A DNA stretch of 64,000 bases from Eledone cirrhosa (lineage: Eukaryota). The notes beneath the pieces are model-generated. The model was not told the origin of the DNA, ran no database searches, and worked only from the letters and a program-made list of their open reading frames with translations. Where the stretch lies: assembly GCA_964016885.1 (NCBI GenBank), contig OZ024740.1:133176001-133240000 (forward strand), given 5' to 3'. The translations under genes and the position numbers were made by a program. Shown here piece after piece: positions 22,275 to 23,928 of the stretch (position 1 is its first letter; every line of letters starts with the position of its first letter).

Positions 22275-23928
<1,654 letters not shown>

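Follow-up and report, generated by a model that had tools for sequence, protein, structure and literature searches.

Animal non-LTR retrozymes are described as repeat units of a few hundred bases that are arranged head to tail, lack an ORF and each carry a type I hammerhead whose stem III is palindromic, and Penelope-like elements (PLEs) have been proposed to mobilise them; the accessible text of the sources names no cis-signal for the driving enzyme (PMC7229834; bioRxiv 10.64898/2026.07.22.740005). Among the PLEs with a C-terminal endonuclease, the Hydra clade is known for TA-repeat targets, a hammerhead near the 3' end, an inverted 5'-truncated copy and a one-sided tail (PMC8557442). In Poseidon_Ac, which belongs to another clade, two internal starts of reverse transcription coincide with the two tail ends, initiation takes place internally without RNA cleavage, and the purified protein, a predicted dimer, cuts and extends both strands of AT-rich DNA (PMC11167929). 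These starts lie in an AC-rich stem loop inside the ORF, and the accessible part of that paper leaves the binding element undefined (PMC11167929). Retrozymes, the Hydra clade, the tail and internal initiation are thus already known.

The window, by which we mean the whole 64-kb stretch of DNA analysed here, holds two families of ORF-less hammerhead repeats, F1 and F2, as well as an element assigned to the Hydra clade (Table 1). F1 and F2 resemble the described retrozymes in unit organisation and hammerhead type, and go beyond them in having a twin hairpin shared with one PLE clade, two fixed insertion ends, a fold-back arrangement and a stem II region of 48–53 nt. We consider it probable that the hairpin pair is an RNA signal, bound by the reverse transcriptase (RT) of Hydra-clade PLEs to start copying inside the RNA.

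Two families of ORF-less hammerhead repeats

Both families occur as tandem repeats plus fold-backs in TA repeats. The F1 insertion of the window turns at approximately position 23272 and has TA runs on either side; its left end corresponds to end site 2, with the tail present, and its right end to end site 1, without the tail, and the ends of the F2 insertion are arranged in the same way. The unit lengths of 646 and 483 bp given in an earlier note on this DNA were found to be correct. Up to eight units were seen head to tail, with eight matches spaced 483 bp apart at G000:C1:82116834-82120243, and neither unit contains a frame of 100 aa when reads through TA repeats are set aside. The hammerheads were called by our own descriptor (core and stems I–III). 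Rfam reported no hammerhead in the 64-kb window, only sub-cut-off low-complexity microRNA look-alikes from TA repeats and fold-backs, and likewise gave only sub-cut-off microRNA matches and no known RNA family for 16 of the 78 metagenome loci described below.

With ORF-less tandem units and a predicted type I hammerhead, F1 and F2 fit the non-LTR retrozymes. Their insertions also have the Penelope-like structure, i.e. a partial tandem, an inverted 5'-truncated copy and a one-sided tail, and share the TA-repeat targets of the Hydra clade and its hammerhead near the 3' end, the tails being 60–150 nt long here versus 30–40 nt for the clade (PMC8557442).

Table 1 Features of the F1 and F2 insertions and of the Hydra-clade element, with positions in the window. 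Hammerhead folds, cut sites and hairpins are predicted.
Feature	Position	Strand	Remarks
F1 fold-back insertion, 646-bp retrozyme family	22434..23926		1.3 tandem minus-strand units and an inverted 5'-truncated unit
F1 hairpin 1, terminal copy	22503..22535	-	lower stem intact, 4 nt missing from loop
F1 type I hammerhead fold	22816..22888	-	48-nt stem II region, palindromic stem III, predicted cut after 22819
F1 hairpin 2	23057..23076	-	just past end site 2, inside tandem junction; second copy 23392-23411, +
F1 hairpin 1 with the reported motif	23149..23184	-	G-to-A change breaks one lower-stem pair; does not fold alone
F1 hairpin 1, inverted arm	23283..23318	+	
F2 fold-back insertion, 483-bp retrozyme family	44885..46048		turn at ~45556
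F2 hairpin 1 with the reported motif	44955..44990	-	
F2 type I hammerhead fold	45068..45152	-	53-nt stem II region, palindromic stem III, predicted cut after 45073
F2 hairpin 2	45343..45359	-	just past end site 2; second copy 45683-45699, +
F2 hairpin 1, further copies	45438-45473; 45569-45604	-; +	
F2 second hammerhead copy	core at 45896	+	
5'-truncated Hydra-clade Penelope-like element	53413..57545	+	open frame 54199-56088, hammerhead core 57445, inverted end copy
Hydra-element hairpin 1, same type, within its 84-nt tail	53478..53496	-	

A shared motif that forms part of a bulged hairpin

The earlier note had singled out two 29-mers, 23145-23173 in F1 and 44951-44979 in F2, which agree at 25 of 29 positions and have the same polarity relative to the minus-strand type I hammerhead fold, and we could confirm both observations. 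When the 483-bp unit was dinucleotide-shuffled 200 times and compared to the 646-bp unit, the best score was at most 22/29; within the 64-kb window, five motif copies with no more than three mismatches were found where chance predicts none. One of the 25 matches is an accident of the copy at 23145 and breaks the stem described below. The T at 23150 is a private mutation of this copy, with C in 90 of the 93 listed matches having a 646-type spacer, and the F1 and F2 families therefore match at 24 of 29 positions. The exact motif pattern gave 1,772 matches in the 3.0-Gb genome, with a spacer other than AAAA in 99 of the 100 first listed, and patterns directed at the 646 family gave 607 and 1,502 matches.

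The motif is conserved among copies, as it is kept in F1 copies picked by the unit body alone (within two errors in 25/28 young and 12/12 older tails). Its invariance in alignment A1 was left out as evidence because the loci in that alignment had been picked by the motif. Two F1 subfamilies are 72% alike overall and agree at 27 of 29 motif positions, a level reached by 26 of 613 windows. Another F1 stretch, upstream of end site 1 (window ~22590-22625), is as conserved between the subfamilies as the motif (28/29).

The similarity between the families is not confined to the motif, as had been stated: a module of approximately 160 nt, from hairpin 1 to just past hairpin 2, aligns between F1 and F2 (z 6.9–10.1; 0/200 shuffles in each of four pairs). 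The description of the units as otherwise unrelated does hold for the remaining bodies, which fail the shuffle test (z 1.2–2.9; score reached by 3–30 of 200 shuffles); no alignment was seen outside the module, and homology over whole units is ruled out.

In the predicted structure, the 29-mer supplies the loop and 3' arm of a bulged hairpin on the ribozyme strand; it is thus a fragment of a larger element whose 5' arm lies outside the reported coordinates. The hairpin is built from four pairs, a 2-nt bulge on the 3' side and an upper stem (GYUC…UU-GARC), and hairpin 1 reads GCUC-UGA…UCA-UU-GAGC in F1 and GUUC-UGGC…GCCA-UU-GAAC in F2. As the arms pair in both families, the differences between them are compensatory. 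A second hairpin of the same build is located past end site 2 in F1, F2 and two related families. Folded alone, the hairpin is weak (z -3.7 for F2, -1.1 for F1 and 0.05 for the window Hydra element), and 150-nt fragments of F1 and F2 fold differently from it; in circular units, the lower stem has a probability of 0.93 (F1) and 0.40 (F2). A long-range pairing of the motif with sequence past hairpin 2 was considered and dropped, as the local hairpin accounts for the same change.

A short-loop version of the hairpin pattern gave 48 matches, mostly deletion variants of F1 plus two further families. More ORF-less families have the GARC-CAC flank of hairpin 1 (L242:3467-3993, L218:3401-4100, L391:880-1530 and L386/L392/L413), and in two of the GARC-CAC families the resemblance extends to the long-stem-II hammerheads and to the sequence past hairpin 2, suggestive of a retrozyme lineage.

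The AU-rich loop is common to F1 and F2 only, the loops of other families being free; it was likely inherited from a common ancestor of the F1/F2 end module, and may serve as a partner-specificity element. The entire 29-mer could be viewed along the same lines, as a remnant of ancestry or of a module swap between F1 and F2 that has no present function, given that the loop half lacks generality (other loops occur in two related families, and metagenome elements have inner lengths of 6–24 nt) and that the second F1 body stretch is equally conserved between subfamilies. What makes this very unlikely is that the arm half pairs with, and changes together with, a partner outside the motif, that the motif has been kept at 27/29 between subfamilies so much less alike elsewhere, and that the F1 and F2 bodies no longer align. 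The remnant reading may still apply to the AU-rich loop alone.

A promoter element had also been suggested for the motif. An snRNA-type promoter is present in newt satellite 2, and the fixed polarity and AT-rich sequence of the motif would be compatible with a DNA element of this type. D. virilis Penelope also has a promoter in this region (PMC8557442). Covariation is unexpected for a duplex-DNA element, however, and the motif was absent from the 300 nt upstream of U2 snRNA genes (7 distinct genes, 10 loci of 48 matches), where the best ungapped match of 14–18/29 was at or below the shuffle-derived chance level. The promoter reading thus found no support and is highly improbable. A tandem array of U2 snRNA genes with a period of ~2.2 kb is located at G000:C3:307349256-307453739.

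Two insertion ends and a one-sided tail

Genomic copies stop at two fixed sites, and the stretch between these is the Penelope tail, with the motif inside. Hairpin 1 begins 0–9 nt past end site 1. At this site, 22 of 43 F2 contexts read through, and 19 of the 21 others turn into TA 7–9 nt before the hairpin; for F1, 89 of 166 read through and 40 of the remaining 77 turn 7 nt before the hairpin. At end site 2, 6 of 13 F2 contexts end 12–13 nt before the hairpin-2 anchor, while the F1 anchor for this end was too low in complexity and its 581 rows were left out. TA microhomology blurs each mapped junction by some bases, and since the elements carry TA letters at their end sites, the true junctions may be a few bases closer. 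Fold-backs have one long and one short end each. In 1.264 Mb chosen by position, TA-bounded inverted repeats had the tail on one side only in 98 of 105 cases, a further 151 of the 256 rows fitting neither class.

The motif had been placed about 60 nt from the left insertion end of both units. The two window units agree with this (60–66 nt), but it is not a fixed register: in the 646-bp family, the distance of the motif-bearing hairpin 1 to this end ranges from 45 to 207 nt in 115 copies (mostly 53–71 nt), and the fixed register is instead to end site 1. The longer spacers contain a grown microsatellite, and end 2 keeps its place. Because the F1 spacer is elastic, end 2 is measured from hairpin 2, which is absent from the terminal copies. 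Hairpin 2 is never copied at the terminal end, and it would therefore act on the RNA template.

At the centre of the F1 tail (e.g. window 23093-23128; L032, L037, L043) is an AT-rich hairpin that is now a growing (AC)n(AT)n microsatellite. Some F1 copies end inside this microsatellite, so that the element carries and spreads its own target repeat.

From end positions alone, a start signal and a cut signal are inseparable, and the main rival to the start-signal reading is that the hairpins mark the ends at another step, with the RNA being cut 5' of each hairpin and copied from the new 3' ends, or with the endonuclease reading the tail as DNA during resolution. The D. virilis tail is reported to be needed for endonuclease recognition (PMC11167929), the tail has been ascribed to endonuclease-mediated resolution (PMC8557442), and the F2 hairpin folds on both strands. 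Nevertheless, we consider such a role unlikely, as end 2 is fixed to hairpin 2 although the DNA of terminal copies lacks hairpin 2, a free stem sequence with kept pairing is ill-suited to duplex-DNA recognition, and the RNA is not cleaved when Poseidon_Ac initiates internally (PMC11167929).

The hairpin in other families of the genome

Using a strict descriptor, built after inspection of the tails of this genome, the tails of 16 out of 42 families were found to open with the hairpin, compared to 0.36 predicted by shuffling, 2 on the reverse strand and 1 upstream; two mis-parsed F1/F2 inversion clusters had been removed and two clusters merged before this count. It was present in 15 of 23 families with tails of at least 75 nt, versus 1 of 19 with shorter tails. 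In 24 families aligned by sequence-only anchors, the five stem positions gave 87 Watson-Crick pairs versus 49.7 when permuted (0/10,000), permutation counts that overstate independence since the families are related. Among the five tail families that have a Hydra ORF, the strict descriptor accepts two and a relaxed one four; neither accepts any of three families with other Penelope-type ORFs (translations judged by eye).

Tail families 4, 7 and 40 (L206:5006-7609, L222:4993-7474 and L184:7533-8629) are of non-Hydra Penelope type and have tails of 37–66 nt without the hairpin. Other words are common to several of the short tails, which may carry a signal of a different kind.

As read from its translation, the frame of the window element, 629 aa in length, has a C-terminal GIY-YIG endonuclease, DKT and a CxCX5C linker, and no CCHH; with its TA targets and hammerhead, these features assign the element to the Hydra clade by the criteria of PMC8557442. 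Pfam returned no family for this ORF. A protein search with the window endonuclease gave at least 150 copies in the genome at 91% or more, all of one family and some with frames of 700–770 aa. In the family of the window element, the two end sites are separated by 84 nt and each precedes a hairpin, with an ATG after the second. In the full-length element L152, each end site is followed by a hairpin, with the ATG coming thereafter.

The window element represents a candidate kind of driver for F1 and F2. An ORF-bearing element with an F1 or F2 tail was not found among the motif loci or among the Hydra fragments in the 1.264 Mb, which hold a small part of the genome's Hydra copies. Hydra fragments beside the motif loci L023, L027 and L119 are separate insertions into the same TA runs; the motif loci L390, L400 and L412 also carry Hydra fragments.

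The hairpin in Hydra-clade elements of other animals

With eight aligned Hydra RT stretches as query, 78 metagenome loci were retrieved, which are related to one another and played no part in the design of the descriptor. A hammerhead with enough downstream sequence was present in 44 of the 78 loci (32 distinct), and 22 of the 32 distinct segments had the hairpin no more than 200 nt downstream of the ribozyme (0.9 expected; 3 on the reverse strand and 1 upstream). No hairpin was found in the other 10, some of which end before the hairpin position. The consensus of these hairpins is GCUC-stem-loop-stem-U(U/C/A)-GAGC-ACU, with 92 sense versus 6 antisense matches, and their inner length ranges from 6 to 24 nt. 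Among 34 distinct hairpins, the upper stem always opens with a Watson-Crick pair (21 C-G, 13 U-A), and in total 80 pairs were counted versus 36.7 when permuted (0/10,000). G-U outnumbers A-C by 10 to 2, with G-U not enriched over permutation. End mapping in this set is noisy, with distances of 0–10 nt in 6 of 20 rows.

The hairpin can also be seen by eye in the published Hydra-2_Amil, Hydra-1_Ajap (twice) and Hydra-2_Ajap from coral and sea cucumber (PMC8557442 File S7), whereas in the same supplement Hydra-1_Amil and Hydra-1_Crog show deviant forms only and none was seen in Hydra-1_Obim (PMC8557442). The twin hairpin is thus visible in the consensus file, and the accessible text makes no mention of it.

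Twin hairpins were found 55–72 nt apart in 20 metagenome pairs, with the second located 5–34 nt before the first ATG. This placement, which recurs in L152, is what might be expected of a protein-binding operator that controls translation or loads the protein on its own RNA, the nearby ends being incidental because the protein sits there. In its loading version the proposal overlaps with the start signal. As an explanation in its own right it is quite improbable, since both hairpins, with compensatory changes, persist in F1, F2 and two related families, which lack an ORF, and each end lies within a few bases of its own hairpin.

Proposed role of the hairpin pair

The conserved cis-signal suggested by the earlier note is thus supported by RNA structure, conservation among copies, covariation of the stem and the tie to the insertion ends, with the correction that the signal is not the 29-mer itself. 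Recognition by the RT, one of the functions that had been put forward, is its probable role, carried by the bulged hairpin as a whole, including the arm beyond the reported coordinates.

For insertion, the unit would be transcribed and then cut or circularised by its hammerhead. A Hydra-clade RT-endonuclease, probably as a dimer, would bind both hairpins and nick the TA repeat on both strands; cDNA would be primed immediately 5' of hairpin 1 on one strand and of hairpin 2 on the other, and joining of the two cDNAs would yield a fold-back insertion in which a single arm carries the tail. Both hairpins are retained in F1 and F2, which have no ORF, and ORF-less retrozymes might keep the pair in order to borrow the enzyme. 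A more specific version, which we put forward tentatively as a fairly even prospect at best, is that each of the twin hairpins docks one subunit of a telomerase-related RT-endonuclease dimer and sets an internal start immediately 5' of itself, the two starts using opposite DNA strands. This would explain both the tail and the fold-backs, and retrozymes such as F1 and F2 would hijack the enzyme by keeping only the twin hairpin and the hammerhead.

Signals of a related kind are known from stringent LINEs and SINEs, which have a common 3' stem-loop, and from hepadnaviruses, with their bulged epsilon signal. In these cases, a small and often bulged RNA stem is read by the element's own RT and kept by non-autonomous partners, and the signal lies inside the copied sequence, either 5' of the start or as its template. 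Unlike these, hairpin 2 is located 3' of the putative start and is not itself copied, and the signal is paired. If the proposal is true, this would be a portable start signal outside the copied sequence, comparable to a template boundary element.

The proposed arrangement resembles Poseidon_Ac in having two internal starts (putative here) that correspond to the tail ends, AT-rich targets and priming on both strands (PMC11167929), and differs in that a separate conserved hairpin lies directly 3' of each end, ahead of the ORF. Neither Rfam nor the literature searched describes the twin hairpin; a description may exist in subscription journals, in Repbase notes or in supplementary files to PMC11167929 and the bioRxiv preprint. 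The contribution of the window is twofold: both hairpins, with compensatory changes, are retained in true tandem retrozymes that have no ORF, and the elasticity of the F1 spacer shows end 2 to be tied to hairpin 2.

Penelope-like elements are the sister group of telomerase, and the hairpin pair bears on the question of how their RNA and internal start sites are chosen, as well as on how animal retrozymes are connected to the enzymes mobilising them. Being short, covarying, clade-specific and in fixed register to both ends, the pair lends itself to mutation-and-rescue experiments. It also provides a sequence-independent marker for placing ORF-less repeats in the Hydra clade, and could possibly serve as a compact signal for loading foreign RNA on such an enzyme.

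Other repeats in the window

Further fold-backs in TA repeats, each of another family, are present at 42539-43468, 688-2263, 44445-44625, 46127-46830, 50751-51778 and 52352-52586 of the window, and most of these six have a full or deviant bulged hairpin at the tail start. The fold-back at 58248-58853 has a clear type I hammerhead (core 58449, minus strand), with no such bulged hairpin seen, and may be a member of another PLE clade. Unrelated, decayed elements of LINE type with endonuclease and RT frames are located at 6748-10250, 34433-39905 and 61824-63714.
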